From a virus (Duplodnaviria > Caudoviricetes), in the IMG/VR virus record IMGVR_UViG_3300042396_000691, positions 32,001 to 96,000 of that record: DNA of 64,000 bases. One strand, written 5' to 3'. The stretch's first letter is position 1, and every line of letters begins with the position of its first letter. The position numbers were made by a program, and so were the translations under genes. Of the stretch, positions 13,043 to 63,999 are shown one piece after another. The notes below the pieces were generated by a model, which saw nothing but the letters and a program-made list of their open reading frames with translations, was not told the DNA's origin and made no database searches.

Positions 13043-13099
13043 TGTCAAAAAGAATTGCAAAGATTTCAAAAACTAAAAAAGCAAAATTGGTGAAAAAAA

Positions 13100-13963: not shown

Positions 13964-13964
13964 T

Positions 13965-40004: not shown

Positions 40005-40006
40005 AA

Positions 40007-41227: not shown

Positions 41228-41795
41228 AGCCAATCGTATCTGGACTAGCAGAAAGTGCCAAGTACCAATCATGTCTGCTATCAATAGTGTTAGAACCACT
41301 TGGGCTTAATCCTGATGTACCAGGAGAATCCGCAAGGGTCATATATCCAGTTCCTGCTGGTGTTGACCAAGTATTGCTTCCAGATCCAATCAAACTTTCA
41401 TTTGATGCTGGATGAATCAGTTCTGCAACTTTGGTAGTAACACCGCTTGCTTCATTAGATATACTTGTCCTGTCATAAATTCTAAGTTTTGTATTTTGAG
41501 TTTTTACCCCAGTGGTATGGGTAAATCTAACATTTAGAGTAGCAAGACCATTTGCTATTGTTCGTAAGTGCCTTGCAGCACTACCGTTAGGATAACCAGA
41601 TGCAGTATTAAAATACTTTATGTTTTTGGCTTTACCGCCATTTGTTGCACCTTGACTATCAGTTATATAGGTATCATCTTGATATTGCCCAACGGCAACA
41701 GATGACCCAAATCCGCTAGATCCATAAAAACCTATACCACTAGATATAATGTTTTCAAGAGAAGCATCACCAGCAAAAAAACTAATTGTAGCCAT
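41184..41795 (-). CDS. putative virion structural protein
   Basis: AGGAG RBS; Gly/Ser/Thr-rich beta-type sequence; last gene of the tail block. Confidence 0.65.
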   Translation of the reverse strand: MATISFFAGDASLENIISSGIGFYGSSGFGSSVAVGQYQDDTYITDSQGATNGGKAKNIKYFNTASGYPNGSAARHLRTIANGLATLNVRFTHTTGVKTQNTKLRIYDRTSISNEASGVTTKVAELIHPASNESLIGSGSNTWSTPAGTGYMTLADSPGTSGLSPSGSNTIDSRHDWYLALSASPDTIGSKTQYALWIELEYL

Positions 41796-41819
41796 ATTTT
41801 TTCTCCTATGTGCATAGTA

Positions 41820-43067: not shown

Positions 43068-43068
43068 A

Positions 43069-46000: not shown

Positions 46001-47856
46001 ATATAGCCAACTTTGAAAAGTTCAGATGAACCAATCTGAGTTACCCCATTAAATATACCAAAAAGACACCTTGATAGTGGATCATTACCAAGTTCTGATC
46101 TTGATGATTCTGGTCCTATTAAAAGTACAGATTGTGGTAAAGAAACATGAATATGCTCTTTACCATCAACCATGACATATTTATCAGAAACAGTTAATTT
46201 TAAAAAAATGTGATCTCCTATCACATAGCAGTCTGGACTTGTGTCATCTATTTGATATGTTCCGGGTGTTGCCAGTATAACTGCCCAATTTTCGAGTTTT
46301 CCTTTAGGGTCTTTAAACTGTCCATCAAATACTGGTTTTGGAATTTGTGCAAATGGACTAGAACCAACTTGAGTTGGGTCCATCCACCCACTTTGAGATG
46401 GAAGAATGTTATATGTTCCCTTTTGTTCATCTGTTAATGTGTCTTGTGGCAATTTTTTTTCTAACTTATTTCTTACTGTTAAGCCCCCAGTTACGCTAGT
46501 TTCACCATCAGGACCGATGTTGTTTGATCTTCCTTTAAGATCTGAATTTCCTCCACCATTTACTTGCACTAAAAATTGTTTTCCCCAATATGTTTCACAA
46601 TAACTTTTTAAATATGAATACAATCTAGCTGCTCTTCTTACGCCAACATCATTCTCTTTTTCTGAAAAATACCTTTTTAATAAAGTTGTACCAGCACCAC
46701 CAAAACGACTCCAATAAAGACGATCAGCATCCCAAGCTCTAGCCCCTCTTAAAAAAATATTTGCATATCTTTCTGGTTCATAAAGTTCAAGATAAAATTC
46801 CCAAGATTCTTGAGAACCCATAACGCATTGTAGTTCTACAGAATTTGTTAAGTAATAAATACCACCTTCTATATCTTCAATTCCAATAGCTGGAATGTTT
46901 ATGTTTTCCATTACTTCAAGAGTAAAAGAATCCCCTATAAGATTACGATATGTTTTAACTTCATAATTAATCTTTGTCTGAGGTGTTCCAGTTATATCAT
47001 GACCAAAATAATATTTGATAACTGAATTTGGATTAATGTATGAGTCAAAACCCCTGTCAAACAATATGGTTTGTTCTTTTGCCCCGCCCCACACAACAAA
47101 ATTGCAAGTAACCCCAGTTGCTGCTTCGCTTCCAGCATCCCAAGATATCGCCTTTTTATTTAGTGCCATTGTTTTTATAGTGCCAACAACCTTTTGATTG
47201 GCTGCATCTAATGCAAGAGATTGGATTTTTATCCTAAAAGTTTTTCCTTCTAAAACTAATCTCCACATATGACCAGTGGCTTCACATATTTGTGAAACAA
47301 CATCTAATAATCCAACTTTTGGTCCTGGTATTCTATAGTAATCAGGAAGTCCTGTTAATATAGCGGATATATCAACAGAGTATTTTTCTGTTCCATTTCT
47401 AACCCCACATAAGCCAGACAATGCTGAAACACCAGCAACAAATGTGTTAACCCCCATTCCAGATGCATTAGAATTTGCTGCTCCGTAACCAATTCCCTCG
47501 TAATATCTAAAAATATTAAAATAATTATCAACTAAACAAGCACTATCATCTTTATTTCCATATAAATTACCAACTACGCATTGAACATTTCTTAAAATTT
47601 CTTTTCCATCACTCAATGTAGCTTCATAAGTAATACCACTACTACTATGTCTTTCTATAACCCTTTCTAAAAAACCAACAAAATTAAATGCCCTAAAACT
47701 AAAATCTTTAACTTCACCGATTTTATAAGGTGCTATAGATTCATCATCTTCGGGAGCCATTTTTACCGTTAATGTTGAACCAGCATCATTCCATCCAACG
47801 CTAGATGAAAAATCTATAACTTTAAGACCAAGAAATTTTTGAGCATCAAATGCCAT
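43069..47856 (-). CDS. large tail tip/baseplate-hub-like protein with Cys-rich and Thr-rich C-terminal region
   Basis: ATG 47856 (MAFDAQKFLG); hub-like N-terminus (FSSSVGW, LLDVVSQICE); C-terminal Cys-rich units, poly-Thr tracts and terminal coiled coil. Confidence 0.65.
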   Translation of the reverse strand: MAFDAQKFLGLKVIDFSSSVGWNDAGSTLTVKMAPEDDESIAPYKIGEVKDFSFRAFNFVGFLERVIERHSSSGITYEATLSDGKEILRNVQCVVGNLYGNKDDSACLVDNYFNIFRYYEGIGYGAANSNASGMGVNTFVAGVSALSGLCGVRNGTEKYSVDISAILTGLPDYYRIPGPKVGLLDVVSQICEATGHMWRLVLEGKTFRIKIQSLALDAANQKVVGTIKTMALNKKAISWDAGSEAATGVTCNFVVWGGAKEQTILFDRGFDSYINPNSVIKYYFGHDITGTPQTKINYEVKTYRNLIGDSFTLEVMENINIPAIGIEDIEGGIYYLTNSVELQCVMGSQESWEFYLELYEPERYANIFLRGARAWDADRLYWSRFGGAGTTLLKRYFSEKENDVGVRRAARLYSYLKSYCETYWGKQFLVQVNGGGNSDLKGRSNNIGPDGETSVTGGLTVRNKLEKKLPQDTLTDEQKGTYNILPSQSGWMDPTQVGSSPFAQIPKPVFDGQFKDPKGKLENWAVILATPGTYQIDDTSPDCYVIGDHIFLKLTVSDKYVMVDGKEHIHVSLPQSVLLIGPESSRSELGNDPLSRCLFGIFNGVTQIGSSELFKVGYIPITPKLMAIGLVATTNDAYGPWYMNSGKGGLTKVEHDSSLTPWEFGSGANLGQVFSEKLKDIQPVDKFETGSLTMVNPPEHQLGDELVKNGAIVTSISASYGPNGITTQYSFRTFLPRFGVTSDVVINRMRQQTAKQNEDRRTILKSYMDTIARQQSANRSEMGGKIRSFFLDFLGRRHDRMSPHALIVMGIGIANAGPGAYFGIGMYTRTKILGASYKQNESMKDLGDKELDSVQIDSKAVASMDTLYVPFRNNFANSGGAFFSSSGYLPHCWPVTPDTLVSQKFTNSPDPQYKRGDNLIDIRQGKVPTSITYNPFKRFCHFDTLIDCNQDYWDNHNEPTKYFSSEGSVGVGSQPIDVKAIALRGPLMISGWGVDLWTGQIIPSVDYGLTDKFTPDPYVSANAPWEAAENKMTGPVDLMWDSARGMWTSHDVVRVQPSATVYGSNFTCNTSGRLSKAFVRMYANDLLSNQLVEVYNLSSKPQYPATQTLAHYSVYDNRWYIKGEGAIPRYNDLKLQAQIYASICNTIGPNPAPPPPICDYNITTGNEKSSFKYYADFDITEQTTDIYTVARLKDNGETTLCPEHKFVDVIRTHGMNAGVPYVIGVTKCPDGTIVPIINTLWFWHGLAKEIILPDEDEDECEGHEDPDDPNTTTTVGPTTTTTTAPSGYCVVETGEGTQCFNCTQYCESEFFLQGPYPKAECESYLPGLNANCSMTLVFDDPCFSCYYDANGEYTGPNKVENCNMDRDQQNANIPACTTTTTPAPCDTYYLYQNEETFCHYCSTAPNGTGGYPGTLIDGVCENGCEDARTIADSEDPRCQGCYKITGGCDQSTCYTCRSCETGESGEYTNLDDCMEQADSQNAQCSPICTTTSTTTTTSAPTTSTTTTTANPCVTVVEAVVCAPQSPGDGYVSGGGDIWTKSVSVVKCSTQPLPPAVFSSSFPNLEVKLLRAELKALTKKFVQLVDVLEKNDIKVF

Positions 47857-47882
47857 TTTGTAATCCACCAATAAATTTGTTT

Positions 47883-49127
47883 TTAAACAAAATCCCCGCC
47901 ATAAGTCCAAGTAACACTTCTGGTGACTTTTCCAGATCTTTCATCGTAAGTTTTTTCATCCTTATCAACAAAAGAATTTCCTGCTGGCTTATACTCGCTT
48001 ACCGATGGTTCACCATTGCTACCATCTTTATATATTACCGTAATATTCACAGATAAACTACCCTGTTTTTTAGTACCAAATCTTTGTAAGATTGGCCCTG
48101 TTGGTTTTCCAATGGCTGCAATAGAAGCATAAAATTCTGTTGGTACATTATCGGTTATATCTACAGTCCTATAAATCTCACCAGCCTTTTCAATTCCACC
48201 AGAAGCATCCATATTTACTGTTATAGTTCCAGCTACAACATTTCTTGAAACAGAAATAGACTTTATTTTATCAGTGGTAGAACCATCATAAGCATCTCCA
48301 ATTTCTGGAATTGTTATTGTTCCAAGATAAGCATTTGCATTTGCGTACTTATCTCCACCTCCTGGACCAGCAAGACCTTTTATACTTATTTGTTTTGAAA
48401 AACTTTTAAAAATTGAATCAGCAGATTCTTTTATAGAATATGTTTCTTCAACTAAGGCACTTGTTTTACATATAGTCCAACTCTCTGTGCATTCAACTGA
48501 GTTTTTTTCAGTGTTAACTGTATAGTTAGTCGTTTTATTGTAAGCAGAACCTGTTGTGGATGGTAAATAACTTGCACCATCAGTAAAACTAGATGAAGCT
48601 GGTAACTTTGTTATAGCCAATTGATAAGTTGCAGTTTCAGAACTATTTAATGTAATACTTCTAGATCTTGTTACTTTTACAAATCTGTCATATTCATCCG
48701 CTGGATCTAAAGACCAATTTTCATCAACATCTTGTGATTCAAATAAAACCTTTTCAAAAACTATTGTGTAATCAGCAAAAACACTACTTGGATCAGCTTG
48801 ATAAGATTTTGATTTTAACTTTACCTTACCAGAAAGAAAGGGGGCACTCATTGTGCCAGTAACAAATAAGTTATTTACAGAATGAACAACTAGTCCTTCT
48901 ATTACTGAATATGCTGTATTTATTTTTCCAAGTCTTCCAAATTCATTGTCTTGTGCAAGATCTACAACATCTCCGTTATTGTTTTTTGCAAGAGAAAGAG
49001 CTTTACCCTTTAAAGTTACTACCAATACGCTCTTTTTTACTTTTCCACTTTCTTTAAATTCGTTCTCTGTTTGTACTGTCACAAGCGGTGTTGGAACTAT
49101 AGGTGTTCCATTAAGAGTTATTGCCAT
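47883..49127 (-). CDS. putative tail protein (paralogue of 49128..50414)
   Basis: Thr/Ser-rich beta protein in the tail block; shares motifs with its neighbour. Confidence 0.6.
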   Translation of the reverse strand: MAITLNGTPIVPTPLVTVQTENEFKESGKVKKSVLVVTLKGKALSLAKNNNGDVVDLAQDNEFGRLGKINTAYSVIEGLVVHSVNNLFVTGTMSAPFLSGKVKLKSKSYQADPSSVFADYTIVFEKVLFESQDVDENWSLDPADEYDRFVKVTRSRSITLNSSETATYQLAITKLPASSSFTDGASYLPSTTGSAYNKTTNYTVNTEKNSVECTESWTICKTSALVEETYSIKESADSIFKSFSKQISIKGLAGPGGGDKYANANAYLGTITIPEIGDAYDGSTTDKIKSISVSRNVVAGTITVNMDASGGIEKAGEIYRTVDITDNVPTEFYASIAAIGKPTGPILQRFGTKKQGSLSVNITVIYKDGSNGEPSVSEYKPAGNSFVDKDEKTYDERSGKVTRSVTWTYGGDFV

Positions 49128-50415: not shown

Positions 50416-52395
50416 TTATACCTCGTTTACTTTTATAAACATGTTCATATCAGCAAAATGGCTTGTGTGAAAATTAAGTCCATGCATATGTAAATATAAT
50501 TTATTGTCTGCCCCTACTACAACATTTGGAATGCTTAAATTAACAAAAGAATTTAAATTGTCGTGTCCTTTTTGAAATAAGTCTACATAATTATTCAAAG
50601 ATGTTTTACCTTCTGTAAATAAATTCATAATATTTGCATAGTGTTCATTATCTCTAGAAACAAATAAGTCCATTTGCCCATTATTTGGCAGATAACCTTG
50701 AGATGTTCCAGTTCCTTCTATATAAAGTGTTTTTTCTATAGTTTTTCCCAAAGTGTCATTAAACAATGTTAAATTTAAATAGTTTTGAATATCTTCTTTA
50801 ATTGTTAAAGACTCTGTGTATAAACTCATTCCAACAGAAAGATCCCCTATTAATGGAACTTCCATATATAAATTAAAACTTTGATGCTCACAGCTTCTAA
50901 TGAAAAGATCTATGCCCTTATAGAATATTCTTATTGCCTCATCGCCCTGCATATAAAGGTTTGTTTTACCATCAAAAGGTATTCTTTTAGGTCCACTAAT
51001 ATAAAGTGGCAATATTTTTTGAGGGTCTTGTTTTAAAAATAATTGCATTTTTTCATCAACTATGCATTTTACAAACATAGTTAAATTTGATTCTGTGTTT
51101 GAAAGTGTAAACAATGACATTGAATTTTCTGGAAATGATTTGGTGAATAATCTTCTAATTCTTGTGCTTCTTCCAGCACCATCTATAAATAATGTTGCAG
51201 TATTTGAATAAGCACCTCTGACATATAGGTTTTTTAAAGATGTATTTTTAGCATTTGATTTAACAAACAAGTTTAATGCGGATATAGGGTTTGCTTTTAA
51301 AAACATCGTCATAGTTTTAATAAAATCTTTATTGCCATGAGTAAATAAATTTAAATTGTTTTCTTCTGCGTTTTTAATAAACAATGAAACATTAGGTATT
51401 CCAACATTTATTGAATCTAAAAAATAAGTTAATGAAAAACTATTGCTTATGGCAGGAGTTACACATGGGTTTGTAAACCTTAAAGTAAAATCTCCACCTG
51501 GATATATTTTTAAATTTGAAAATGTTACTATACCATCTACAGCTTGTACCATAGTTGTACCAATGAATGCTCCTGTTCCAGTGTATATTTCTGCTGTAAC
51601 TCGTAAATTAGAAGAGGTTACTACTTGATTATAAGCATCTCTAACCTCTATGACTGTAGCACCTAAAGCAACATTAGTGTAAGTGCCTGTTGGCTGAGTA
51701 GTTATGACCAATTGTGTTTCAGTAGTTATCTCATTACAGTAGATGGTTTGTATAAGGTCTATTTCTGTAGAATCAATTGCTTCGTCATATATTCTTAAGT
51801 CATCTAATTGATAGCCGTTAAAAGTATTAGTTATAAAAAATATGTTTGTATTATCAACTATCCTCTCTGTGCTAAACGGTATTGAATAATCTAATGTGTT
51901 TGGAGTTGGTGTTGTGCCATCAAAAAAAAGATCTTGTTGTGTTCCATTTAATGCCAAAGATAATGGTTCAGTTGGGCCTCTATAAATAATTATTATGTTT
52001 GTAAACTGTTGACTAAAATCATTTGCACCTAATTTTATTAAAGCTACTCCAGAATCAAAACCATTATTAAATCCAACGCTTAAGCTGTCTGTCGATGTTT
52101 TTATTGAAATGTAAAATCTTGTATTTCCACCACCATAAATTTGAAAAATAATATCTTCTTCAACACCTTTTACCCAAAAAGATATTGTCCAAGGTGCATC
52201 TACCGTTGATGGCAATGGGTTTGATTGTGTAAATACGCCACTAGTTAATGGGCCATGATAGCCATCTTGAAAGTTTAAACATTTTTGAACTAGCCCATCA
52301 ACAAATGTGACAAGACCTCTAGTATTAGAAAAATCTAAGTTTCCTATACTGTCAGTCAAGTCGCCATTGAATTTCCATTGATGTATTAATGCCAT
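50416..52395 (-). CDS. LamG/concanavalin-like + Ig-like + repeat-containing tail protein
   Basis: IHQWKFNGDLTDS...WTISFWVK...LDDLRIYDEAI (LamG); QLVITTQP...DGIVTFSNLKI (Ig-like); ~20 short xL[FY]xxG-like repeats. Confidence 0.75.
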   Translation of the reverse strand: MALIHQWKFNGDLTDSIGNLDFSNTRGLVTFVDGLVQKCLNFQDGYHGPLTSGVFTQSNPLPSTVDAPWTISFWVKGVEEDIIFQIYGGGNTRFYISIKTSTDSLSVGFNNGFDSGVALIKLGANDFSQQFTNIIIIYRGPTEPLSLALNGTQQDLFFDGTTPTPNTLDYSIPFSTERIVDNTNIFFITNTFNGYQLDDLRIYDEAIDSTEIDLIQTIYCNEITTETQLVITTQPTGTYTNVALGATVIEVRDAYNQVVTSSNLRVTAEIYTGTGAFIGTTMVQAVDGIVTFSNLKIYPGGDFTLRFTNPCVTPAISNSFSLTYFLDSINVGIPNVSLFIKNAEENNLNLFTHGNKDFIKTMTMFLKANPISALNLFVKSNAKNTSLKNLYVRGAYSNTATLFIDGAGRSTRIRRLFTKSFPENSMSLFTLSNTESNLTMFVKCIVDEKMQLFLKQDPQKILPLYISGPKRIPFDGKTNLYMQGDEAIRIFYKGIDLFIRSCEHQSFNLYMEVPLIGDLSVGMSLYTESLTIKEDIQNYLNLTLFNDTLGKTIEKTLYIEGTGTSQGYLPNNGQMDLFVSRDNEHYANIMNLFTEGKTSLNNYVDLFQKGHDNLNSFVNLSIPNVVVGADNKLYLHMHGLNFHTSHFADMNMFIKVNEV

Positions 52396-52413: not shown

Positions 52414-55400
52414 TCAAAGTTCATTTCTTTTAAATCCAGTAATAGCATTTTGTATTTGTGCTGCAATATTCAATGTTATTCCAGATAATGATTGCTGTAT
52501 TGCTTGTAGTACACTTGGGGTATTAAAGCTTATATTCAACAATAATGGTGACATAGCTAAATTTATTGTGCTTGGTATACGATCTAATGCAGAGGTTAAA
52601 TCATTTACTGCCATTTCAAAATTACGACTACTAGAAGTCATGGCCGATGCAGCAGTATTCATAATTGATACCGCTTGATTAAAAGTTGAACTTGCAGAAT
52701 TAAATGATCCAGAAACAACTTGTAAAGTTTGATTTAGTGTTCCTGCACCAACAGCCACAGATTCTCCCGCAACTCGTAAATTATTTCCTGCATTATTTAA
52801 TTCGCTAGAATCAAAGGTTGAAATTGCTCCACGACCTTTACCACTTCCACCATCATAGTAGCCAACTTTTCCACCCTTGGCATAATTATTAACTCTATCT
52901 AAAAATGCAGTTCCAACTCTATCTACTGCTGGCTTACTTACAACAAACTCTCCTGGTGTTAACATAGCTGGTTGAGTATCGGTGCTTGAACCACCATTGG
53001 CCATAAATCGGAATGGCCGAACAGGACCAGAACTAAAGACTGGGTTTCCTTGTACTCTATTTGCTAAACTAAAATAGCGGTTAGGGGCTGGTCTTGGTGG
53101 AGTAATTTTTTGAAACGGTGCATCGTAATGCGACATTCTTGCATTTTTAATAGTGTCTAAAGCTTGAGTTGCTGCGACATCTGTATTGTTTACTGATAAA
53201 CTTCCTAGACCATCTTTTTGCAAGGAAGATATTGCCTGTTGAGCTATGCCCACATTACTTCCAGGCATACTAGCAAGGCTGCTTCCAGCCAAAGCTTTAT
53301 TAGCACTAACGCCTTGGAATGATTGATTTCCAGCTTTGCTAAAGCCAAGTTCATTTATATAGTCTTTAAGACTAACCTTATCATAATTTTGACCATTATC
53401 ACCATGATTTGGTGGACCACCAATTAATCCAGATATATAACGACTTCCAACAGCCGATGTTCTATATCCAGTTATTGGTGCTCTAGAAATTTCTTTATTG
53501 TTTAAGATGTCATTAAAAACTGAATCTTCCATTGCAAATTTTGAAGCACCAGCCAATTTTGCTGAACCGTATCTGGAATCAGATACTGCATTTAATCCAC
53601 CAACATAATTGGGGATTGGACCACCACTAAAAGAAATATTACCAGATCCAACTCCACCAAATTCTTTTGAATGTTTTTCAAGAATTTCAGTGCCATAATT
53701 GAAACTGTAATATTTAAATAAATCTGGTCTATTTAAATTTCCTGACCTATCTGCCCTATAGTTAGCTAAATTTCCAAGAGTATTTGCAGTGACTCTAGGG
53801 TTATAGACTCTGGAAGCTAAATAGCCCTGTGTTCCTATGTCAAAATCTGTCCTTCTTTTTTCATATCTAGTAGGTCTATACCGTTTACCACTAGCCATGT
53901 CATAAAGACCAGTTCCTTGATCAGCCATTCTATCCATTTCATTGTTATATCTTGGTCCAGAGCTTATATATCCCCTGCCTGGAGATTGTCCAGAATACCT
54001 AGCGTACATTGGGTTTATAGCTGTAAGATTACCACCACGATTTAAATACTTTACCGCCCCACCACTGTTAAGATTTTGCAAGAGAGGGAGATTAGCAGCA
54101 GTTGCCCTAGCATTAACTACATACTCACCGGGAGATAGTATTGCTGGTACAGTATCAGTACCCTTTGCGACAAAGAAGGATGGGTCAGGGTTTGGAGCAC
54201 TGCTTGGAACAATACCGCCAGAGGCCATAGCAAGAGGTTTTTCAAAATTGTCTTCTTTAGCACCAATCCAATTATATTTTATACCTTTGTTTTTTTCAAA
54301 ATAGTCATATATGTCTTTTGAAACGACTTCTTTTTCATCTGGAATGCTCAAATCTTTTTTTAGTTTATTCGAGTCATATTTAAAGAAATTTTCTTTAGTT
54401 TCTACATTTCCATCATTAGAACTGTATTGTAATGCATCAAATCCTGTGTTAAATAAATTGTTGTTAAAAAATGGAACTATTGCAGTAAGTTTTTTACCAA
54501 AGTCTTTGCTAAATTGTTCTAATATTAAAGCATTTTCTTTTTGCCTTTTTTCAATTTCAATATTTTGATATTGTGGCCATAGTCCAGCATAGTTTTTTTC
54601 TGTTAATCCATTGTTTTGATCATTGTAATAAATTTTATCATTTATGTTTTTTATTAAACTAATATAATCTAACAAATTATCTTTTGTTGTTTCTTCTTTG
54701 TAAACACCACCAAATAATTCTTGTTCAAGAATGTTTTTTAAATTTATTCTTTTTTCTTTATCCGCATCTATCATTTGTGGCTTATCTACCAAAGGATCTC
54801 CATATGACATATATGGTTCCATTAATGAAGAAACTTTTGCACTTTGTTCATTTACATAATCATCAGATCTTATTTTTTCGATTGGTGGTGCATCAAGTCT
54901 TAATTTTTTACCTGTGTCTTTTATTTTTTGATCTTCTCCAGCTTTAAGTCTTTCAGCAATTTCAATTTTACTATACAGTTCTTGTGATCTAATAGACTCT
55001 ATGTCAAAAACTTCATATTTTCTGTTCAAATCTTTTATTGGATAACCTTTATCATTTGATGGCTTAACACCAAGTGATTTTGCTATTTCCACTATTTTTT
55101 GTTCATTTTGATCGTCAAACAATATTTTTGGTTCAAGCTCTGAAATATTTGATAGGTTTTTATCTTGTTTAAACAATCTTCCAAATATTGCACTTTTATC
55201 ATAATCGTTTATTTTTCCAGAATCGCCTTTTCCAAGTTTTTTCAAAATGGAATCTATGGAATCCGAGGCTTTACCATCTGGATTATATTTTTCTCTGATT
55301 TTATTAAGTTGTCCTTCGCTTGCACCACTTTTTTGCAAAGGGCTTATTTCTGAGATAAACGATTCTGGTATTCCTCGTTCACCTTTGTTTTTTAACTTTT

Positions 55401-58400
55401 CAAAAAGTATTGCATCTTCTATTGAAGTATAGGGATTTTCATTAAGATATCTTTGATTTGTTAAATCTTTAAATCTACTATCTGTTACCATTCCATAAGA
55501 TTCAAGTTCATCAGCGTACTTATTGAGATATAAAGAAGGATTGTTATTTAATTCTTTTGTGTATGATTCATTATCTGCATCATCAAAAAAAGCAGCGTGA
55601 TCAGTACCCATGCCCCTAGCATCAAATCTTGGTTGTAAATATTTTCTTAAATATTTTGCTTCTTCTCTTTTTCCCTTTTTTAAATTTTTAGCATATGCAT
55701 TTGAAAGTGTTTTATACTGTGCAATTATAAGTCCAATTCCAGCACCAACTAATGTGGCACCTGGAATAGGAATAGCAGTTCCAGCAAGTGCTCCAGCAGC
55801 TATTGCTCCACCAGTAGAAACTAATTCTCCAGTGCCTGTTGTATCAGCATTGCCTCCACCAAAGATTGATTCTGAATCTTGATATTTTTTCTTGTCGTAT
55901 AAATTTGCAATTTCTGGAAAAGCTTGCCCATAAGTTTCAACAGCCTTTTGAAGCCTCACAGGATTTATATCAGATGTAAGAGAAGTTCCTATTGCCTCTA
56001 AATCACTAACTGTTTGAGGTAAAAATGCTAACCCCAAAGGTCCAGCAAATGGGGCAACTCTTGGTATTCTTGTAAATAATTCAAACAAAGGAATAATTGC
56101 TGCTGATGTTGCTGCTTCTTGACCCAATTTTTTCTTAATTTCACTTGGATCAACACCATACATAGAATCAACAATTGCTGTTCTAGCAAGTGGTAATGCC
56201 ATTTGTGCATAAGCCCCATACTTTGCTATTGTTTTTCCACCATCTGCCATTTTAAATTTTGGAGAATTAGTAATTATTTTGTTGGCATTACCTCCAGCCC
56301 TAACTACTTGCCTATTTACTTCTACAGAAACTCCTTTATTTTTTTCCCTTACTTTCTCTACAGCCCCCATTATTTGATTAATATCTCCACTTTTTGAAAT
56401 GTCTTTATATTCATTTAGAACTTGAGTCATTTCACTTGAGGTGACACCTTTGCTTGCTAATATTTCTCTAATTGTCTGTTGTTTAGGTTGTGCAACTGGT
56501 TTTGGTAATTCAGCTACAATTGGTTGCGGTTTTGGTGGCAATTTTGTTTCTGGTAGTACTTCACTTGGTTGAGTGCCAGTTCTTCCATCTGTTCCTTTTC
56601 CTGCATCATTTAAATTTGGTTTATTGCCTGTTGTTACATCAACTTTTGGTGGCAATTTTACTTCTGGTGGTAATTCAACTTTTGGTATAGGCTTAACCGT
56701 TGGCTTAACTTCTGGTGGAACCACTGGCCCAACGAATGGTTCTGGTGGTAATGGCCCAACGAATGGTGCTGGTGCTGGTGGTCCAAAGATAGGTTGTCTG
56801 ACTAATGGTAAAGGTCTTCTTCCATCAGCATTCAACCGCATTCTTGGACCGCCCCTTTGAGCTTCTATTACATTTCTTCTATCTTGTAGTATTTGCTGTT
56901 GTCTTAAAGCTTGAGCTTCTTGTGCTCTTATTTGACCTGCTCTTAATTCAGCAGCAGAATTATTTCTATCATTTCTAAGTCTTTCTCCAAGAATTCCTAT
57001 AACACCCCTTGTTTGTCTTTCTCTTATTTCTCTTGGATCTAATAAACCAATAATTCCAAAATCTGTTCTGAAATTTTTAGGTTTTTCAAAACTAAAGACA
57101 GTATTTTTTATAGGATTTTGAAGTGCCTCAAAATGAGTTGTTCCAGATTTATTTTTAAGTATTTTTTCATTTAAAAAATTAGATTCACTTTTCATTAAAT
57201 CTTTAATGTTATTTTTTGAATCAATTTTTACATTTACATCAGATGGTGTTGTTTTTTTAACTTCTGAAGTAACTGGCTTTGCCATATCTCCTGTTTTATA
57301 ATCAGCTATCTGATTTTCAAACTTATTTTGTTCAATAGCATTCTTAATAAAAGCTTCTTTTCCCTTTTGACTTAAATCTTGATATTTTGATAAATCATCC
57401 ATGTTTAAATTTTTAATAATTCGACTGGCTTTTTCAGTTTCCAAAAATTTTTGTGGTGTTTCTATATTTTTACTATTTAAAAATTCAACCCTTTCGGATT
57501 GTGACATTGTTTTAAATTTTTCTATTTCTTGTTGAGTTAACTTTGCATTTTTTATTTGTTCGCTTAAAGTAGTAGCAACAGGTTTAACAGGTTCAACAGG
57601 AGCTTCACCCTCTGGATAAACATCAACTGGTTTTTGAAAGAATTTTATTGTTTTATTGATTGCTGCTTTAGCAAGAAAATATCCAGGAACACCGATTCCA
57701 GTAGCAAGAATACCAGCTTTTATAAAATCTTCTGTGTTAAATTCTCTGTCTAAATCAATTACTTTATTTAAATCTGTTATATTTGTTAAAGGTTTATCTG
57801 CTGTGCCAGTATAAACTTTTTTTGGATCTGCCCCTTTTAATTCATTTGTAAATGCAAATACTGCACCAGCAGTAAGTCCTGTTTTTAAAAGTAAAGATCT
57901 TAAAGATTCTTTTGGTGCAAACGATATATTTTTTGATGGAATCTTACTTGATGAAACTTTTTTTGAAGAATTAATATCAGGTGCATCTATAATCTTCTTA
58001 GGTTTTGACAAATCAACTATTGGATTTTCTATTTTAGGAGGAAATAATGTATGAATACTTGCTTCGTTGTTTGGGCCACTTATATTTAATCCTTTAATTT
58101 TTTCAGCAGCAATATCTGGTGAATATGCTCTTTTTATAGCTTCTTTAACAAGTTCTACTTCAATGCCTCTATTGCCAAATTTTCCCCCTAAAATTCCATC
58201 TAGTGCAATTGGTTTTCCTGCTTTAATGTCTTTTGCAATACTTTGATGAAAACCACTATTGTAAATATCTGCCATAGATTCATCGCTAGCATGATCAAGC
58301 ATACTTAGTAATGCCGTTAATCCACGACTTTTGCCTGATTTTAACTTACGACTTTCATTAGCATTTGCTTGTAATTCAGACAGAAAAGTAGGTATTCCAC

Positions 58401-61400
58401 CCTGCTTCCAAGGAGAACTGGCACTACCCCTTTTGCCATATTCCTCCATATTTATAGCACCATACAATGAATTATGCATAGGTGACATTTTATCTTGAGC
58501 AAAATCTTGAATCGAATGAGTTAATTCATGACCCATTATTCCTTTTTGTTCTACTGGCTTTTCACTTATAGAATAATGAGCAGGATTACTTTTATACATG
58601 CTACTTCCTGTGTAGCTTCTGTCATAAACGGTTGAAACTTTAGGTTGGCCTGGTCCAGAATTATCACCTCCACGACCTAAAATATATTTTTGATTACTTA
58701 CTTTTTCTAAAAATACATCCATAGAATTTTTTATTCTTCTATTACTTGGTTGATCAAATAATTTATCTCCTATTTCCCTACTTTCTTCAAGATACTTAGT
58801 GGTAAATATATCCTCTGGTTTTTTCCAACCCAAACCTTGTATTGGGCCTCTTTCTTCTCTCAATCTTGCCAATTCTAATTTATGTAAATCGTAAAGTTCA
58901 TGCATTCTCTTTTCTTGTTCTAAATATCTTTTAAACTGATCTATTTTTCTCCTTGGATTAATAGATTTAGAATTAGGATCAATTAAATACTTCTCTGCTT
59001 GAATCATAAATTCTGGATCATGAAGCACCCCAAGAGGCGACTTGGGTATTTCTTGAGCTTTGGGTTCAGCAATATAGGCACTTGTGCCTTGCTTGCCATA
59101 TCCAGAAGTCATTTGTTTAAACATTCTGGAGAATATGTTTTCTCTTGGTTTTTTTTCTCTTGGTTTTAAATAAGAAAGATCCTTATTAAGCTTTAACCTA
59201 CCAGTACCTTTAAGAGCTTTCCGAACTTCAAGAAAACCTGGTTCAAATGTTCTTTGTACAATTTTAGCAACTTCGGCATCTTCTACTGCAAGATTTTCTA
59301 TAAGTTCTTTATTGTTAAACCATGAACTACCAGCATTAACTAATGGTGGAGGTATTCTTCGACTACTCAATTCTTGTTTAGATGGTTTTAAATATTTGGA
59401 CATCGACATAGGACCATCACTACTACCAATAGATGGTTCAACTGGTTTTTTACCACCAAAAAACTTATTTAAACCAAGATACCCTAAACCAGCAACAGTA
59501 GTAACACCCAAACCAACAGCACCAATTTTTAAAAAGTCTTCAATGTTGAATTCTCTGTCTTTCTTTACAACATTTTTTAAATCATTTGGGTTTATAAAAC
59601 TTTGATCTTTTGTGCCACTTAAAACTTTTTTCGTTTCTCCTGCCATTGACATATTTGGGAATGCTAATGATCCAGCAGCAACTAATGCTGCACCTATAGC
59701 TTTTTTACCAGCACCAACAAATGGTGAGATAGTTTTTGGATTTAATGCACCTTTTGAAAAAACAAGTTCATACTGTCCATTACCAATATGTTTATAAGCT
59801 CTAAAATTCTCATTTAAAGAAGCTTGAGGTTTTCCATCTATCGTAGGAAAATAAGTTGAGCCTTTCCCATGTCTTCCAGAATTTGATGGCTTTATAGAAG
59901 CATCATCGCTGACAATAATCGTATGATTTTCATTTTGCCCTGCATAAGCCATGCTCGCTTGGCCCTTGCTAAATGATGGAAAAGCAGTTGGGCGAGCCTT
60001 CATTTTTTCAGCAAGAGTAGCATTTGAAGAAACCTTAGCATTAGCATTTGTTCTTACTGTGCCTAATTTAACATCACCTAAAGACTCTTCCCCATGAATT
60101 ACACGGTAATATGCATCTGAATTGTTGAAAAAATTACTATTTACTCGTTCTGGATATCCACCTTTGCTTAAATAACTAACCTTACCCCCACCATTCATAT
60201 GATCTAAAAGACCCTTATTCTTTTTAGCCTTATCTGCACTAACAATAAATTCTCCAGATTGAACCATAGCTGGAGTTCTACCACCAGCTTGACCCCCCTT
60301 AGAAAAACCTATTGCCTTAATATTTTTGATACTTTTTAAGCCATAATTTCTTTCAAAATAACCAGCCCCAATAGTAGTAATTTCTGGTGGACTTCCAGCC
60401 ATTAACAAATCTTCAAAATATGGTTTTAAATTTGCTCTTCTTTCGTAATATGATCTGGTGTTACCATCACGATCAACAGGATCAACTGCTTGTCTTCCAT
60501 CTAAACCAACTGGGTTAGCATTAGCTCTTAAATAATCTTCTGTAGCATCTAATATTTGTTGGTAAGGAACTTGTTTTATAGCCAATGGCATCCCATAAAC
60601 TACACCAGCTTTAGTCATTTGAAGAAGATTGTTTCTTGCTTCTACGCCAAGATTTTCTATATTTAAACCAGTTTCTTTAATGTCTGTTATTTTAGACCAA
60701 GGGGCAATATTTTGTTTTGAAACTATTGCACTAATTGGCAAAGATCCATCTTTATAAGGGATATTTGTAAGATCAGCACTTCCTCTTAATATTCTTAAAG
60801 AGTTATTTAAGGCGTTTCTTCTCCAAGAACCTCTAAGATTTCCAAACTTTGTTAAAACTGCGATATCAACATTTTGTTTTCTTTGCATTTTTGCAATTTT
60901 TTGTGCTTCTAAACGATTAACATTTAGTGGAGCAAAAAGATCGCCAAAACCACCTTCTGCTAAATAATTAACAGGACCGCCAGCATTCATTGCTTTTGTA
61001 GGCTTAACTGTTCCACCGCCATTCAAAGCTTGTAGCAAAGGAAGATTTTCAGATGTTGCTTTTGCGTTAACCACATATTCGCCATGATTTAACATGGCTG
61101 GTATTGTATCTGGACCTATCGGTTTAAATACAGTTGGATCTGCACCAACCATTGCAGAAGAATGGGTCACCATACCACCAGTGTTAAACGCTCTTGGTCT
61201 TGGGGTAAGCGGATTAACTGGAGCGACTTGATTTACTGGAATATTTAAAAGGTTTAACTGAGCATTTAAATTTTGTATGCTATTTGCTGCAATAGTTGAT
61301 TGTGTTTGAAGTTGTTCGATTTGTTGAAAAAACTGTCCACCAATAAGACCGCCAAGTCTTTGTATATCATCTATTGCTTTTGAAAAAGCCGATGAACTAA

Positions 61401-63999
61401 CATTTTGTTGAAGTAAATTTAAAACAAAACTTCCTAAGTTTGCCTTATCTCCTTGAGCATTTGGATCATTTGTAAAATAAGTATTATTATTTGCATCAAG
61501 CTGTCTACTTAAACCTAATTTATTAGCTAACTCACCAGATTGTGTTTGAACCTCTTTGTTTTGTATAGTTTGAAACTGATCACCAGCATATAACCTTATA
61601 ATAGATGCAAGATCTTTTTGATTAATCACTCCACTAGTTTTAGCACTTCTTTCTTGGACTTGTCCAATAATGGCATTAATATCTAAGCCTTGAAGATTTT
61701 TATTTGCAGCAAGATTATTTAATAATTTACTAACATCTAAAACATTGTTTTGACCCAAAGAATTTGCTGCTATAACATCAGCCTGATTGGTATCTCTAAA
61801 TTCTTCAGCCTTTTTTTGACTAGACCGTTGTTTTTCAACAGAAGCTAAAAACACAGAAATGTCTTTGCTATTTGGTGCTACATATTTAGTGTAACTTTCT
61901 TGAGTTACCATATTGCCGATAACACTAGCAGATGGGGCTACTGCTTGTAATTCTTTTATTCTTGCATCGTTAGCCCTAAGTGATTGTTCTTGCCCACCTA
62001 TTTGTGTTCTTGTAAGTTCTGCGGACAACCTTGTAAAAAATTGTTCATTTTGTTTTGATAGTTCTGCAAAAAATTGACCTTGTAAAGTTTGTTGATCTTT
62101 TATTATTAATGACTGTGCTTGTTCTCTTACTGCCATAGCAGCAAAAAGTTGTGCGTTTAGCTGAAGTAATTGTGGACCATATTTATCTTGAACTTTTGTT
62201 TCTGGCTTAGATACAAAACCGCTTGCTTGTAAAAATTCAGACTTTAATTTTTTGCCTTCTTCTCCAGAAAAATCTAAGTATTCAAAAATTGCTTTTCTTT
62301 GTTCAACATTAAACCTTAAAAGGTTTCCACCAAGTTCTTTAGCAATACTAGTCAATTGACTACCAGCTTGAAGTCTTTGTAATTGTTCTGGCGATGATGT
62401 TAATAATTTTTCGCCCCTATTTTCTGTTTCAGATTGTTTTCTTGCATTGTCTTGTTCTTCGTTTGCTATTTCTTGTCTTATTTTTCCAACTCTTTGTTCA
62501 ATTGCAGATACTTCTTCGGTTGAATCAGCAAGATTTTTCATTGCTTGATTAAGAAGTGAAGCTTCTACCTTTAATCTTCCCAACTCATTTGTCGCATCAG
62601 TATCTTGACCCCTTCCATTAGCCCCCGCTGTAAATCTAGCGTTTTTTCTTTTGGCTTCTGCTGCTTCTGTGTTAATTCTATTCTGATTGATTCTATCTTG
62701 TATTTGTTGAGGGTCTAATTGATCGCCATTATTAAGACCAGTAAGCCTAGCCTGTTGTTCTGCAAATGCTTGTGTCTGGTCAAATATGTTGGTCATATCA
62801 AGACCTATCTGACCCTCTTTTATCTCACCAAATCTTGCACCTAATGGATTTGCCGTTTTTTGTTTTTTTATTTCGTTTTCAATATCGATATTTGTTTTAA
62901 AATTTCTTGTTTGTTGTTGAATTTTTCCAAGTTTTTCGTATTCGTTTACAGTTTTTATTGTTTCTTGAGCTAATTTATTTATTCCAGATACATATGCATC
63001 TGATGCTTTTTCTAAATCCTCTGCAATTTTTTGATAAGCTTTTAAGAATGGTTCTGAAACACCAGACATTATTTTTTTTGCAAATTCACCATAGTCACCA
63101 CCAGATTCAGCAAGCATCTTAGAGAAATCTTCGCCCATTTTTCCAACAATTGAATTAACATATGCTGTCGTATCTGATTTATTAAATCCTCTATTGTTTA
63201 ACTCTTGTGTTAAAACGCCTCTTAAAACAGATTGTGGATCTTTACCACCTTTAACATCATTTGGGTTTATGTTTGCAAGTATGTCTGGAAGTAGTGCAGA
63301 TATATTTGCAACTATGTTTCCAGATTTTTCAAAATTAGATCCGCTTGAACCAAGTCCGCTAGAAACATCTTTTAAGTTTTCCACAAACATATTAGGGTTT
63401 AAAAATGATGATTGAACATCAGAAGATATTCTTTTCTTTTGACCTATAGAAAAATTTGAAGATAGTGCATCTGTTATTGTTTGAAACCTTGGACTTAAAT
63501 TATTCAATGTTGAGGCAGCATTAGATGAAGCATTTGCCAAAAGTGAAAACGCTACATTAAGTTGTTCTGTACTTTTAACTGATAGTGTTTGATTTTTAAT
63601 AGCAATCTGTTGTTTTTCAAAATCCCTTGCGAATGTTTCAAATTTCTTTTTTAATTTTTCTATTGGTTGATCTAAACCAATTGATAATTTTCCAATCTGT
63701 GCTGAATTAGAAGTGTCTTCAAAAAATTTACTTGGATCAAATTTTTGATCATCTCTTGGTTTAAAAGTTTTAGTTTTTTCATCAAAAGCTATACTTGATT
63801 TTATTTCTTCTTCAATTTGTTTTGATAGAAGAGAATCTATTCCAGATGCTTGTCCTGCATATTGTGTTCTTCTTTCCGCTTTAGCACTCTTAGCCTCTTG
63901 CGTTCCCGAATTGGTTAATGAAAAACTTGTAACAGATGCTTTTGATTTTTCTGCAATTGCAGTATCGATTTTATCTTGTAAATCCGTTATTTCTTTTAA
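52414..63999 (-). CDS. giant tape-measure-like protein (>3,860 aa, 5' end outside window) with repeated GG/PAML modules and internal cargo-like domains
   Basis: The frame continues past 63540 to the window edge (LKEITDLQDKIDTAIAEK...); long coiled-coil Q/A/E/K-rich region; four TMP-type PA[MI][LV]xxGE[FY][VI]V motifs; lies upstream of tail genes. Confidence 0.8.
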   Translation of the reverse strand, partial: LKEITDLQDKIDTAIAEKSKASVTSFSLTNSGTQEAKSAKAERRTQYAGQASGIDSLLSKQIEEEIKSSIAFDEKTKTFKPRDDQKFDPSKFFEDTSNSAQIGKLSIGLDQPIEKLKKKFETFARDFEKQQIAIKNQTLSVKSTEQLNVAFSLLANASSNAASTLNNLSPRFQTITDALSSNFSIGQKKRISSDVQSSFLNPNMFVENLKDVSSGLGSSGSNFEKSGNIVANISALLPDILANINPNDVKGGKDPQSVLRGVLTQELNNRGFNKSDTTAYVNSIVGKMGEDFSKMLAESGGDYGEFAKKIMSGVSEPFLKAYQKIAEDLEKASDAYVSGINKLAQETIKTVNEYEKLGKIQQQTRNFKTNIDIENEIKKQKTANPLGARFGEIKEGQIGLDMTNIFDQTQAFAEQQARLTGLNNGDQLDPQQIQDRINQNRINTEAAEAKRKNARFTAGANGRGQDTDATNELGRLKVEASLLNQAMKNLADSTEEVSAIEQRVGKIRQEIANEEQDNARKQSETENRGEKLLTSSPEQLQRLQAGSQLTSIAKELGGNLLRFNVEQRKAIFEYLDFSGEEGKKLKSEFLQASGFVSKPETKVQDKYGPQLLQLNAQLFAAMAVREQAQSLIIKDQQTLQGQFFAELSKQNEQFFTRLSAELTRTQIGGQEQSLRANDARIKELQAVAPSASVIGNMVTQESYTKYVAPNSKDISVFLASVEKQRSSQKKAEEFRDTNQADVIAANSLGQNNVLDVSKLLNNLAANKNLQGLDINAIIGQVQERSAKTSGVINQKDLASIIRLYAGDQFQTIQNKEVQTQSGELANKLGLSRQLDANNNTYFTNDPNAQGDKANLGSFVLNLLQQNVSSSAFSKAIDDIQRLGGLIGGQFFQQIEQLQTQSTIAANSIQNLNAQLNLLNIPVNQVAPVNPLTPRPRAFNTGGMVTHSSAMVGADPTVFKPIGPDTIPAMLNHGEYVVNAKATSENLPLLQALNGGGTVKPTKAMNAGGPVNYLAEGGFGDLFAPLNVNRLEAQKIAKMQRKQNVDIAVLTKFGNLRGSWRRNALNNSLRILRGSADLTNIPYKDGSLPISAIVSKQNIAPWSKITDIKETGLNIENLGVEARNNLLQMTKAGVVYGMPLAIKQVPYQQILDATEDYLRANANPVGLDGRQAVDPVDRDGNTRSYYERRANLKPYFEDLLMAGSPPEITTIGAGYFERNYGLKSIKNIKAIGFSKGGQAGGRTPAMVQSGEFIVSADKAKKNKGLLDHMNGGGKVSYLSKGGYPERVNSNFFNNSDAYYRVIHGEESLGDVKLGTVRTNANAKVSSNATLAEKMKARPTAFPSFSKGQASMAYAGQNENHTIIVSDDASIKPSNSGRHGKGSTYFPTIDGKPQASLNENFRAYKHIGNGQYELVFSKGALNPKTISPFVGAGKKAIGAALVAAGSLAFPNMSMAGETKKVLSGTKDQSFINPNDLKNVVKKDREFNIEDFLKIGAVGLGVTTVAGLGYLGLNKFFGGKKPVEPSIGSSDGPMSMSKYLKPSKQELSSRRIPPPLVNAGSSWFNNKELIENLAVEDAEVAKIVQRTFEPGFLEVRKALKGTGRLKLNKDLSYLKPREKKPRENIFSRMFKQMTSGYGKQGTSAYIAEPKAQEIPKSPLGVLHDPEFMIQAEKYLIDPNSKSINPRRKIDQFKRYLEQEKRMHELYDLHKLELARLREERGPIQGLGWKKPEDIFTTKYLEESREIGDKLFDQPSNRRIKNSMDVFLEKVSNQKYILGRGGDNSGPGQPKVSTVYDRSYTGSSMYKSNPAHYSISEKPVEQKGIMGHELTHSIQDFAQDKMSPMHNSLYGAINMEEYGKRGSASSPWKQGGIPTFLSELQANANESRKLKSGKSRGLTALLSMLDHASDESMADIYNSGFHQSIAKDIKAGKPIALDGILGGKFGNRGIEVELVKEAIKRAYSPDIAAEKIKGLNISGPNNEASIHTLFPPKIENPIVDLSKPKKIIDAPDINSSKKVSSSKIPSKNISFAPKESLRSLLLKTGLTAGAVFAFTNELKGADPKKVYTGTADKPLTNITDLNKVIDLDREFNTEDFIKAGILATGIGVPGYFLAKAAINKTIKFFQKPVDVYPEGEAPVEPVKPVATTLSEQIKNAKLTQQEIEKFKTMSQSERVEFLNSKNIETPQKFLETEKASRIIKNLNMDDLSKYQDLSQKGKEAFIKNAIEQNKFENQIADYKTGDMAKPVTSEVKKTTPSDVNVKIDSKNNIKDLMKSESNFLNEKILKNKSGTTHFEALQNPIKNTVFSFEKPKNFRTDFGIIGLLDPREIRERQTRGVIGILGERLRNDRNNSAAELRAGQIRAQEAQALRQQQILQDRRNVIEAQRGGPRMRLNADGRRPLPLVRQPIFGPPAPAPFVGPLPPEPFVGPVVPPEVKPTVKPIPKVELPPEVKLPPKVDVTTGNKPNLNDAGKGTDGRTGTQPSEVLPETKLPPKPQPIVAELPKPVAQPKQQTIREILASKGVTSSEMTQVLNEYKDISKSGDINQIMGAVEKVREKNKGVSVEVNRQVVRAGGNANKIITNSPKFKMADGGKTIAKYGAYAQMALPLARTAIVDSMYGVDPSEIKKKLGQEAATSAAIIPLFELFTRIPRVAPFAGPLGLAFLPQTVSDLEAIGTSLTSDINPVRLQKAVETYGQAFPEIANLYDKKKYQDSESIFGGGNADTTGTGELVSTGGAIAAGALAGTAIPIPGATLVGAGIGLIIAQYKTLSNAYAKNLKKGKREEAKYLRKYLQPRFDARGMGTDHAAFFDDADNESYTKELNNNPSLYLNKYADELESYGMVTDSRFKDLTNQRYLNENPYTSIEDAILFEKLKNKGERGIPESFISEISPLQKSGASEGQLNKIREKYNPDGKASDSIDSILKKLGKGDSGKINDYDKSAIFGRLFKQDKNLSNISELEPKILFDDQNEQKIVEIAKSLGVKPSNDKGYPIKDLNRKYEVFDIESIRSQELYSKIEIAERLKAGEDQKIKDTGKKLRLDAPPIEKIRSDDYVNEQSAKVSSLMEPYMSYGDPLVDKPQMIDADKEKRINLKNILEQELFGGVYKEETTKDNLLDYISLIKNINDKIYYNDQNNGLTEKNYAGLWPQYQNIEIEKRQKENALILEQFSKDFGKKLTAIVPFFNNNLFNTGFDALQYSSNDGNVETKENFFKYDSNKLKKDLSIPDEKEVVSKDIYDYFEKNKGIKYNWIGAKEDNFEKPLAMASGGIVPSSAPNPDPSFFVAKGTDTVPAILSPGEYVVNARATAANLPLLQNLNSGGAVKYLNRGGNLTAINPMYARYSGQSPGRGYISSGPRYNNEMDRMADQGTGLYDMASGKRYRPTRYEKRRTDFDIGTQGYLASRVYNPRVTANTLGNLANYRADRSGNLNRPDLFKYYSFNYGTEILEKHSKEFGGVGSGNISFSGGPIPNYVGGLNAVSDSRYGSAKLAGASKFAMEDSVFNDILNNKEISRAPITGYRTSAVGSRYISGLIGGPPNHGDNGQNYDKVSLKDYINELGFSKAGNQSFQGVSANKALAGSSLASMPGSNVGIAQQAISSLQKDGLGSLSVNNTDVAATQALDTIKNARMSHYDAPFQKITPPRPAPNRYFSLANRVQGNPVFSSGPVRPFRFMANGGSSTDTQPAMLTPGEFVVSKPAVDRVGTAFLDRVNNYAKGGKVGYYDGGSGKGRGAISTFDSSELNNAGNNLRVAGESVAVGAGTLNQTLQVVSGSFNSASSTFNQAVSIMNTAASAMTSSSRNFEMAVNDLTSALDRIPSTINLAMSPLLLNISFNTPSVLQAIQQSLSGITLNIAAQIQNAITGFKRNEL

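Follow-up and report, generated by a model that had tools for sequence, protein, structure and literature searches.

The element described here lies in a window of 64,000 nucleotides (the whole stretch of viral DNA that was analysed), which corresponds to bases 32001-96000 of the IMG/VR record IMGVR_UViG_3300042396_000691, a linear record of 109,715 bp estimated to be 73% complete. Positions 52414..63999 on the minus strand are occupied by the C-terminal part (3,861 codons plus stop) of a giant open reading frame (ORF) whose start lies beyond the window. The full gene (L005:414-15707, minus strand) encodes 5,097 amino acids (aa) and begins with an ATG that corresponds to window position 67707. 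An earlier note, made from the letters of the window, took the ORF for a giant tape-measure-like polyprotein in which four copies of one module bracket regions of swappable cargo. That the ORF encodes a tape measure protein (TMP) of the tail, one with an N-terminal core of the TP901 type, is almost certain, as judged from matches to PF10145 at aa 127-335 (4.3e-25; 89.2 bits against a cut-off of 33.2) and TIGR01760 at aa 87-298 (1.8e-21; 76.6 bits against 28.8), both outside the window. The gene belongs to an uncultured AT-rich phage, the genome of which would measure ~150 kb if the record is indeed 73% complete. Its tail is probably non-contractile; a sheath family was not found in the record at this level of completeness.

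Seven copies of a ~55-aa module flanked by glycine pairs were found in the TMP, three of them beyond the window and four inside. Module 1 (aa 472-522) and the tandem pair formed by modules 2 and 3 (aa 715-766 and 760-810) lie outside the window on the same strand. Inside, all on the minus strand, are module 4 (60943..61197, aa 2171-2255; profile match 72.8 bits), module 5 (60151..60318, aa 2464-2519; 68.8 bits), module 6 (54025..54240, aa 4490-4561; 83.3 bits), on which a match to PHROG 25241 ('tape measure') also falls, and the C-proximal module 7 (52840..53013, aa 4899-4956; 67.2 bits). The four modules of the earlier note were all recovered at their places, separated by 210, 1,971 and 338 aa as had been described; its count of four stands for the window, but the ORF extends further and the full protein has seven. 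A profile built from the seven copies gave seven matches in the 109.7-kb record, all in the TMP ORF, and the loose core pattern P..[LVIM]..G[ES][FYLWM][VI] matched the full TMP seven times, against a chance expectation of ~0.01 matches estimated from residue frequencies. Self-BLAST for internal repeats returned the identity match only, and patterns and hidden Markov models (HMMs) were used for the modules. The consensus of the module reads FAxGG-xV-(x)n-DTVPAMLTPGEFVVN-x-A-x4-L-x-LL-x2-[IML]N-x-GG-x-V-x-[YF]-x2-GG.

The modules had been proposed to be bounded by hydrophobic-x-x-GG motifs, and the full protein bears this out. Of 22 such motifs, 17 fell within the 425 module residues and five within the other 4,672; when the whole protein was shuffled 500 times, 10.0 +/- 3.1 motifs were obtained (maximum 18). 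The GG flanks thus genuinely belong to the module. The lone MADGG reported near 56240 is present outside any module (56236..56250, minus strand), but the five non-module motifs do not exceed the shuffled expectation. Lysine and arginine were modestly enriched before the first GG (26-30% at positions -4 and -3, against a background of 12.5%), too weakly for basic residues to be retained as a definition of the site. An AlphaFold2 (AF2) model of one module, computed from an 83-row alignment, had a predicted local distance difference test score (pLDDT) of 71.1, with 81-85 in the core. It displayed a single helix over the A...LLxxLN part, an extended GEFVV stretch without partner and no compact fold; as modelled, the module behaves like a partner-requiring motif and not like a self-contained domain.

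The module profile was searched against 1.84 billion representative proteins and matched 18,250 protein clusters at E ≤ 1e-3, 4,187 at ≤ 1e-10 and 768 at ≤ 1e-30. Detailed counts rest on the best 150 of these 18,250 clusters, ranked by summed module score. Their proteins were 2,217-7,872 aa long and contained 4-11 matched stretches each, with 4, 5, 6, 7, 8, 9 and 10 copies in 43, 50, 27, 17, 10, 2 and 1 proteins, respectively; 141 of the 150 representatives begin with M. The first module started at a median position of aa 523 and the last ended a median of 137 aa before the C-terminus, while the spacing between modules clustered near 0, 150-350 and 900-1,250 aa. The consensus of 811 copies, FAxGG-[LVI]V-...-DTVPAMLTPGEFV[VI]N-x-A-...-L-x-LL-x-x-[IML]N-x-GG-x-V-x-[YF]-x-x-GG, includes several near-invariant residues (G 99%; L 95%; P, E and V 94%; N 93%; D and A 91%), and the three GG pairs were retained in 70-93% of copies. 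The multi-copy module is not unique to this phage and characterises a large metagenomic class.

A scan of IMG/VR with the N-terminal core returned 50 loci on contigs of up to 221 kb. Forty-three were examined, five that duplicated other contigs and two partial matches being left out. At least one module was present in 40 of the 43, and 20 had not reached a stop after at least 3,786 aa, at the end of the DNA examined. Two contigs, L039 (221 kb) and L040 (206 kb), carry the same N-terminal core together with multi-module TMPs; as they exceed 200 kb, part of the lineage would count as jumbo phages with very long TMPs, implying very long tails. Among GenBank phages, megablast with the TMP ORF gave no match, and tblastn with aa 2108-5097 gave module-length matches only, in 12 records.

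The module was also encountered in TMPs of well-known phages. Residues 732-783 of lambda gpH match the profile (E 5e-10; 3e-08 among PDB sequences, 8iyk_H), and the module is very probably homologous to this lambda element. Further matches among PDB sequences were mycobacteriophage Douge gp16 with two modules (963-1029 and 1409-1473; E 1e-18), gp46 of Pseudomonas phage JBD30 with one (1014-1086; E 0.002) and, weakly, 8vjh_Q (E 0.025); the four best PDB matches of the 83-sequence module profile were all TMPs. In lambda and Pan1 the module directly follows Tape_meas_lam_C. The claim that such motifs usually stand near the C-terminus agrees with lambda, Pan1, JBD30 and 8vjh, where the module is C-proximal, and with module 7, which stops 141 aa short of the C-terminus and is placed like the single lambda copy; the other six copies of the present protein are internal. 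No Pfam or NCBIfam model covers the module. According to the structural descriptions of Douge, T1, JBD30 and lambda, the last 32-42 TMP residues are seen docked in the tail tip; the TMP parts given as resolved are 1658-1699 in Douge, the last 33 residues in JBD30 and 818-849 in lambda, and the module region is not resolved in the Douge structure or in that of lambda (lambda: PMC12617516).

Comparison with orthologues revealed a sharp difference between the modules and the sequences that separate them. Intact orthologous frames of 5,093 aa (contig G001) and 4,984 aa (two contigs, one of them G003) were found on separate contigs and keep the same seven modules in the same order. The modules were 88% identical to both orthologues (368/418 and 367/418 residues), against only 52% (2206/4208) and 44% (1836/4208) identity of the non-module sequence after aa 471 to the 5,093-aa and 4,984-aa orthologues, respectively. 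The module is the best-conserved part of the TMP after the N-terminal core. When the identity of orthologue pairs was followed in 20-residue steps, similarity switched within 20 residues of module edges. Against G003, 16-20 of 20 residues were identical through module 1, then 3-7, and again all 20 at module 2; behind module 5, where 14-19 of 20 had been identical, only 2-5 remained so against either orthologue; and at module 6 the count against G001 climbed from 1-12 to 18-19. The module edges coincide with mosaic breakpoints between orthologues. Of the best 150 giants, 134 share the N-terminal core, and most segments of the present protein were found in only 0-3 of them. When the first slot of 173 proteins was grouped by single linkage, at least 40 sequence groups resulted. 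Conserved modules with variable segments between them are what the earlier note had anticipated.

The segments between the modules were of several kinds, and most were lineage-specific. The window part of the spacer between modules 3 and 4 (61198..63999, minus strand; aa 1237-2170) had a charged, polar and helix-favouring composition and is presumably ruler; much of it was 77-98% identical to G001, and a block of it (aa 1301-1750) recurred at other positions in eight of the 150 best relatives. Segment C (60313..60942, minus strand; 210 aa, aa 2256-2465) was kept only in direct orthologues, being found in three of the 150 best representatives and eight of 199 sequences (the present protein and duplicate copies counted), and had no Pfam match. 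Between modules 5 and 6, a diverged direct repeat brackets a cassette with an HExxH motif: its first unit, R1 (59437..59694, minus strand; aa 2672-2757, hydrophobic at aa 2726-2746), and its second, R2 (57622..57888, minus strand; aa 3274-3362, hydrophobic at aa 3328-3346), were 41% identical over 92 aa (E 2e-15). The same interval includes a proline-rich stretch (56338..56745, minus strand; about aa 3655-3790, with 23% Pro in block aa 3601-3700) and the strongest hydrophobic, glycine-rich segment (55720..55821, minus strand; aa 3963-3996), where the Kyte-Doolittle mean over 19 residues reached 1.89; a match close by to an RTX N-terminal family remained below threshold (E 0.0026; 17.9 bits against a cut-off of 26.8). 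Altogether, five hydrophobic, glycine-rich segments were recognised in the TMP (aa 403-436, 1174-1196, 2726-2746, 3328-3346 and 3963-3996). Segment E (53014..54027, minus strand; aa 4561-4898), with an abundance of G, S, N, Y and R, was limited to orthologues, and the C-terminal tail of 141 aa (52417..52839, minus strand), presumably the region of the tail-tip docking helix, gave a sub-threshold match to PhageMin_Tail (0.016). Pfam searches with the window part of the TMP and with nine separate segments yielded nothing significant. Much of the long segments may simply be ruler.

Two cassettes stand apart from these lineage-specific segments and look enzyme-like, with conserved residues of catalytic type. 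The first (aa 523-714, outside the window) represents a ~160-aa family that always follows module 1 and was found in 22 of 199 sequences, a count that includes the present protein and duplicate copies of one orthologue. In 11 sequences that are 21-36% identical to the present one, E65, D84, E92, K108, R111 and G135 were invariant and P82 was kept in at least 90%. This signature corresponds to the E...PxD...ExK pattern of restriction-endonuclease-like (PD-(D/E)xK) nucleases, and a nuclease activity is putative. The divergent allele of the 4,984-aa orthologue G003 still matched the family profile (8.3e-09) and kept the signature. Profile searches of Pfam, NCBIfam and PDB gave no match to a nuclease family or solved structure, and no free-standing relatives were found at E ≤ 1e-3, either with the single sequence or with the 11-row alignment among proteins of near length. 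A language-model search gave RE_Eco47II (0.85), a lead only, and matches to viral hypothetical proteins of ~170 aa (0.96) that could not be confirmed.

The second is the HExxH cassette (57988..58830, minus strand; aa 2960-3240), whose HELTH motif lies at 58516-58530. H101, E102, H105 and E152 were invariant in six aligned copies, and the cassette looks like a candidate zincin-like metallopeptidase. It follows module 5 in the present phage and its closest relative G001 but module 1 in L026, L027 (two copies), L031, P0066 and P0048, which supports the suggestion that inter-module segments are swappable. Its profile detected no additional contigs in IMG/VR, and a language-model search yielded a weak LPD23 lead (0.86) and no family match. 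Judging from these conserved residues, the chance that at least one of the two cassettes is an active enzyme falls just short of even.

The position of the module in lambda suggests a link to TMP cleavage. According to the structural account of the lambda tail (PMC12617516), gpH is cut after tail assembly in a glycine-rich region near its C-terminus, giving gpH* of ~78 kDa and gpHC of ~14 kDa; gpH* is six-fold and gpHC at the tip three-fold, residues ~690-817 are not resolved, and the cut site and catalyst are called unknown. By mass calculation, cuts at 710-731 give an N-terminal fragment of 77.7-79.5 kDa and would thus fall 0-20 residues before the FATGG of the module. With a cut behind the module the fragment would instead weigh 85 kDa, at odds with gpH*. 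A processing role of the module can reasonably be inferred because the lambda copy sits at the gpH cut region, and by this analogy the module would mark a maturation or transition point. Whether at least the last module of the 5,097-aa TMP marks a cut is an even call, and cuts at the internal modules as well are rather doubtful.

Other phages offer partial parallels. T5 pb2 is stated to be cut after R1127 (PMC10038345), which falls directly before A-E-G-G; this resemblance to the FAxGG flank is a lead only because the module profile does not match T5. For JBD30, a cut at residue 1066 is assumed by its authors by analogy with T5, and by alignment this residue falls inside the module, just after the conserved Asn. 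TMP processing is also inferred in the phiTE paper, from a six-fold to three-fold mismatch. As for a possible protease, the gene that the earlier note had called a C1 peptidase (window 7325-8248, plus strand) matched Peptidase_C1 marginally over 77 residues (E 4e-4; 21.0 bits, the cut-off being 20.7); it lies in a plus-strand block far from the tail genes and nothing ties it to the TMP.

Several known TMPs can be set beside the present one. Lambda gpH resembles it in having a module copy 70 aa from its C-terminus, preceded by a hydrophobic, glycine-rich stretch as is module 1 here, and located in the non-resolved part of gpHC beside the estimated cut. It differs in having a single copy in 853 aa, with TMP_2 N-terminal and Tape_meas_lam_C domains and without embedded enzyme-like cassette, whereas seven copies are spread over the 5,097 aa of the present protein, whose core is of the TP901 type. 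In the portions of the literature consulted, gp96 of Thermus phage P23-45 is described as a 5,002-aa TMP with a fused virion RNA polymerase, and metallopeptidase and membrane domains are noted as common in TMPs (PMC10770324). It is comparable in its ~5,000 aa, its extremely long tail and its enzymatic and membrane domains that enter the host (PMC10770324), but it has no detected module (profile search with filters off, E ≤ 10), and its cargo is N-terminal, where the present protein has an ordinary TMP core; relatives of gp96 were not among the tblastn matches of aa 2108-5097. T5 pb2 is likewise cut during tail assembly, with a C-terminal fragment that stays in the tip and a hydrophobic stretch upstream of the cut, as far as its published description goes (PMC10038345), but the module profile does not match it, even with filters off. 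Douge gp16 (1,699 aa, two modules) and JBD30 gp46 (1,158 aa, one module) are ordinary-length TMPs of solved virions.

The nearest cultured very long TMP with the module is that of Nodularia phage vB_NpeS-2AV2 (3,404 aa), which has two adjacent modules at aa 1004-1111. The similarity is at module level only, and its modules lie in the first third of the protein, none being C-proximal. Its gene is L019 (KU230356) 8998-19212, and its tail is listed as 795 nm in Table 1 of PMC6293099, which amounts to ~2.3 Å per residue against 1.5 Å for an alpha-helix; the measurement, the gene model or the assumption of a helical ruler must be off for very long tails. Another type of delivered protein is formed by the polyvalent proteins of Iyer and colleagues, reportedly very large multi-domain proteins delivered with the DNA, in phages and conjugative elements; a zincin-like peptidase is said to be frequent in them and has been proposed to free the other domains. 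They differ in being, by the same accounts, head or injected proteins without a ruler role.

The genes around the TMP gene offered few landmarks. It is followed on the same strand by a 659-aa gene (50416..52395, minus strand) with a concanavalin-like lectin domain (PF13385, 2.6e-07), a candidate distal tail protein by its position only, and by further large ORFs, of which one of 1,613 aa (window 43069-47910, minus strand) had no family match. Directly upstream of a TMP gene is the usual place of a frameshifted tail assembly chaperone pair. Here this slot holds overlapping ORFs of 127 and 293 aa (L002 5791-7039, minus strand), neither with a family match. A 348-aa ORF upstream also lacked a family match; it was considered as a tube protein of the P23-45/P74-26 type, which has equal length, and was rejected for want of similarity or PDB match. 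A PHROGs search with the ten downstream and ten upstream neighbours of the TMP gene matched almost nothing. Among the presumed structural genes upstream, a 595-aa protein (L002 11494-13281, minus strand; G000 105494-107281) has a family-2 glycosyltransferase domain (1.6e-12), and its gene is kept at the same place in the relative L010 (2446-4233).

Elsewhere in the window, a 637-aa ORF (24721-26634, plus strand) encodes no more of a DNA polymerase III alpha subunit than the part with the PHP and NTPase domains (1.9e-75 and 1.2e-39); the remainder must be separately encoded or absent. In a 663-aa protein (16547-18538, plus strand), a RecA-like domain is confined to the C-terminal third (aa 378-584, 1.8e-10), and the N-terminal 370 aa have no assignment. 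An HNH/homing-endonuclease-like gene (39240-40004, plus strand) stands just before the strand switch at about 40.7-41.2 kb, and the G+C content rises from ~0.30 to 0.37 over 40-48 kb (40001-48000), across the large minus-strand tail genes.

The explanation that accounts best for these observations, and which is held with a little more than even confidence, is that of a giant TMP ruler with iterated maturation modules of the lambda type and with cassettes. The whole 5,097-aa chain would act as ruler and, at 1.5 Å per residue, would specify a tail of ~0.75 µm. Modules would have multiplied as the ruler was lengthened by internal duplication and cassette insertion, each being a maturation and transition element such as that of lambda, where the chain is cut after tube assembly and the C-terminal piece, in a changed oligomeric state, is retained at the tip. 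Were several copies in use, the giant TMP would be processed into several pieces leaving the tail ahead of the DNA; hydrophobic segments might then form an envelope channel, and the nuclease-like cassette after module 1 and the HExxH zincin-like cassette might act in the host envelope or cytoplasm. Processing at the modules is well motivated by the lambda case, and the cassettes are candidate effectors by their conserved motifs only. A more far-reaching proposal appears unlikely: that the module is a portable maturation site and the determinant of the lambda gpH cut, that the TMP is a polyprotein cut at several modules, from which nuclease-like, metallopeptidase-like and membrane-inserting pieces enter the host before the DNA does, and that cassettes are exchanged at module boundaries.

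A number of observations weigh against iterated maturation modules with enzyme cassettes. The adjacency of gpH cut and module is a gel-mass estimate. T5 pb2 is cut without a detectable module, and the module is therefore not required for TMP cleavage; phiTE is not among the named PDB matches of the module profile, although deposition of its TMP was unchecked. Within the record, at 73% completeness, a search for a JAB or NlpC/P60 peptidase such as lambda gpK came up empty. The AF2 model of the module, of moderate confidence, is equally compatible with a linear interaction motif and with a cleavage site, and the correlation of copy number with length in the best 150 proteins (r = 0.74) is biased because these were ranked by summed module score. 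The inter-module segments have no significant match in Pfam, NCBIfam or PDB sequences. As to the cassettes, the position two residues after E92 is R in some nuclease-like copies instead of the K of ExK; of the six copies of the other, two read HExxxH, and a nine-copy alignment reads HExxxH in four copies and HExxH in five; this HExxH cassette has no Pfam or NCBIfam match, and its AF2 model (6-row alignment; mean pLDDT 41.6) was unusable.

Of the alternatives, the one that survives best, tentatively at about a third of the overall weight, is that the modules are uncut structural staples which bind the tail assembly chaperone, the tube lumen or sister chains and keep a long ruler in register, the internal copies being by-products of ruler lengthening by duplication and the inter-module segments mostly spacer. 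One modelled helix with an unpaired extended stretch is what a motif whose folding depends on a partner should show; the clustered spacing (~0, 150-350 and 900-1,250 aa) and the rise of copy number with length are in line with staples, as are the many segments without detectable family and with compositions compatible with a helical spacer. Furthermore, a 795-nm tail with a 3,404-aa TMP, as tabulated for the Nodularia phage (PMC6293099), needs the whole chain as ruler. However, the lambda cut follows tail assembly, so a full-length ruler does not exclude later processing; the single lambda module belongs to the cut-off fragment and adjoins the cut, and conserved residues of catalytic type in two cassettes are unexpected for a spacer.

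The modules might instead be mainly recombination junctions, whose conserved coding sequence provides homology for cassette exchange between phages and whose conservation reflects recombination more than protein function. Similarity between orthologues indeed switches within 20 residues of the edges of modules 1, 2, 5 and 6, and cassettes occupy different slots, the first with its at least 40 groups among 173 proteins. This is nevertheless quite improbable: conservation at the protein level extends to phages as far apart as lambda and a mycobacteriophage, where DNA homology is out of question, the near-invariant module residues point to selection on the peptide, and sharp breaks are also expected where a constrained element adjoins fast-evolving sequence. 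Finally, an artefact of misassembly, or of gene fusion through sequencing errors such as metagenomic contigs can carry (the frame of L037 is split by a frameshift in a lysine-coding A-run), can be practically dismissed because four separate contigs carry uninterrupted frames of 4,984-5,097 aa in which all seven modules recur in identical order, and 20 of the 43 further loci stay open for at least 3,786 aa and 141 of the best 150 representatives start with M. The break in L037 (about 2935-2999), beyond which the TMP continues in another frame, is probably a homopolymer sequencing error. Neither it nor L038, the frame of which ends 47 nucleotides from the contig end, could be retained as a natural gene split at a module.

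Enzyme-carrying giant TMPs, as P23-45 gp96, and TMP cleavage in lambda and T5 are already known, the latter being now inferred for several other phages as well. In the literature searched, which mostly did not cover subscription journals, nothing was found on the module or on multi-module TMPs. New here is the glycine-flanked element as a conserved unit, present once and C-proximally in ordinary TMPs and 4-11 times in giants, together with its coincidence with the lambda cut region and with mosaic breakpoints, and the description of two cassette families. As a conserved element at the lambda cut region, the module offers a concrete target for mutagenesis of lambda. In the giants, cuts at modules would predict several virion fragments with termini at modules. 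The two candidate enzyme cassettes join the short list of activities carried by TMPs. The module occurs up to 11 times per protein within a large class of giant TMPs from uncultured phages, which reach 7,872 aa. Rulers of 5,000-8,000 residues, implying tails of ~0.75-1.2 µm, are common in environmental phages and not an oddity of Thermus phages.

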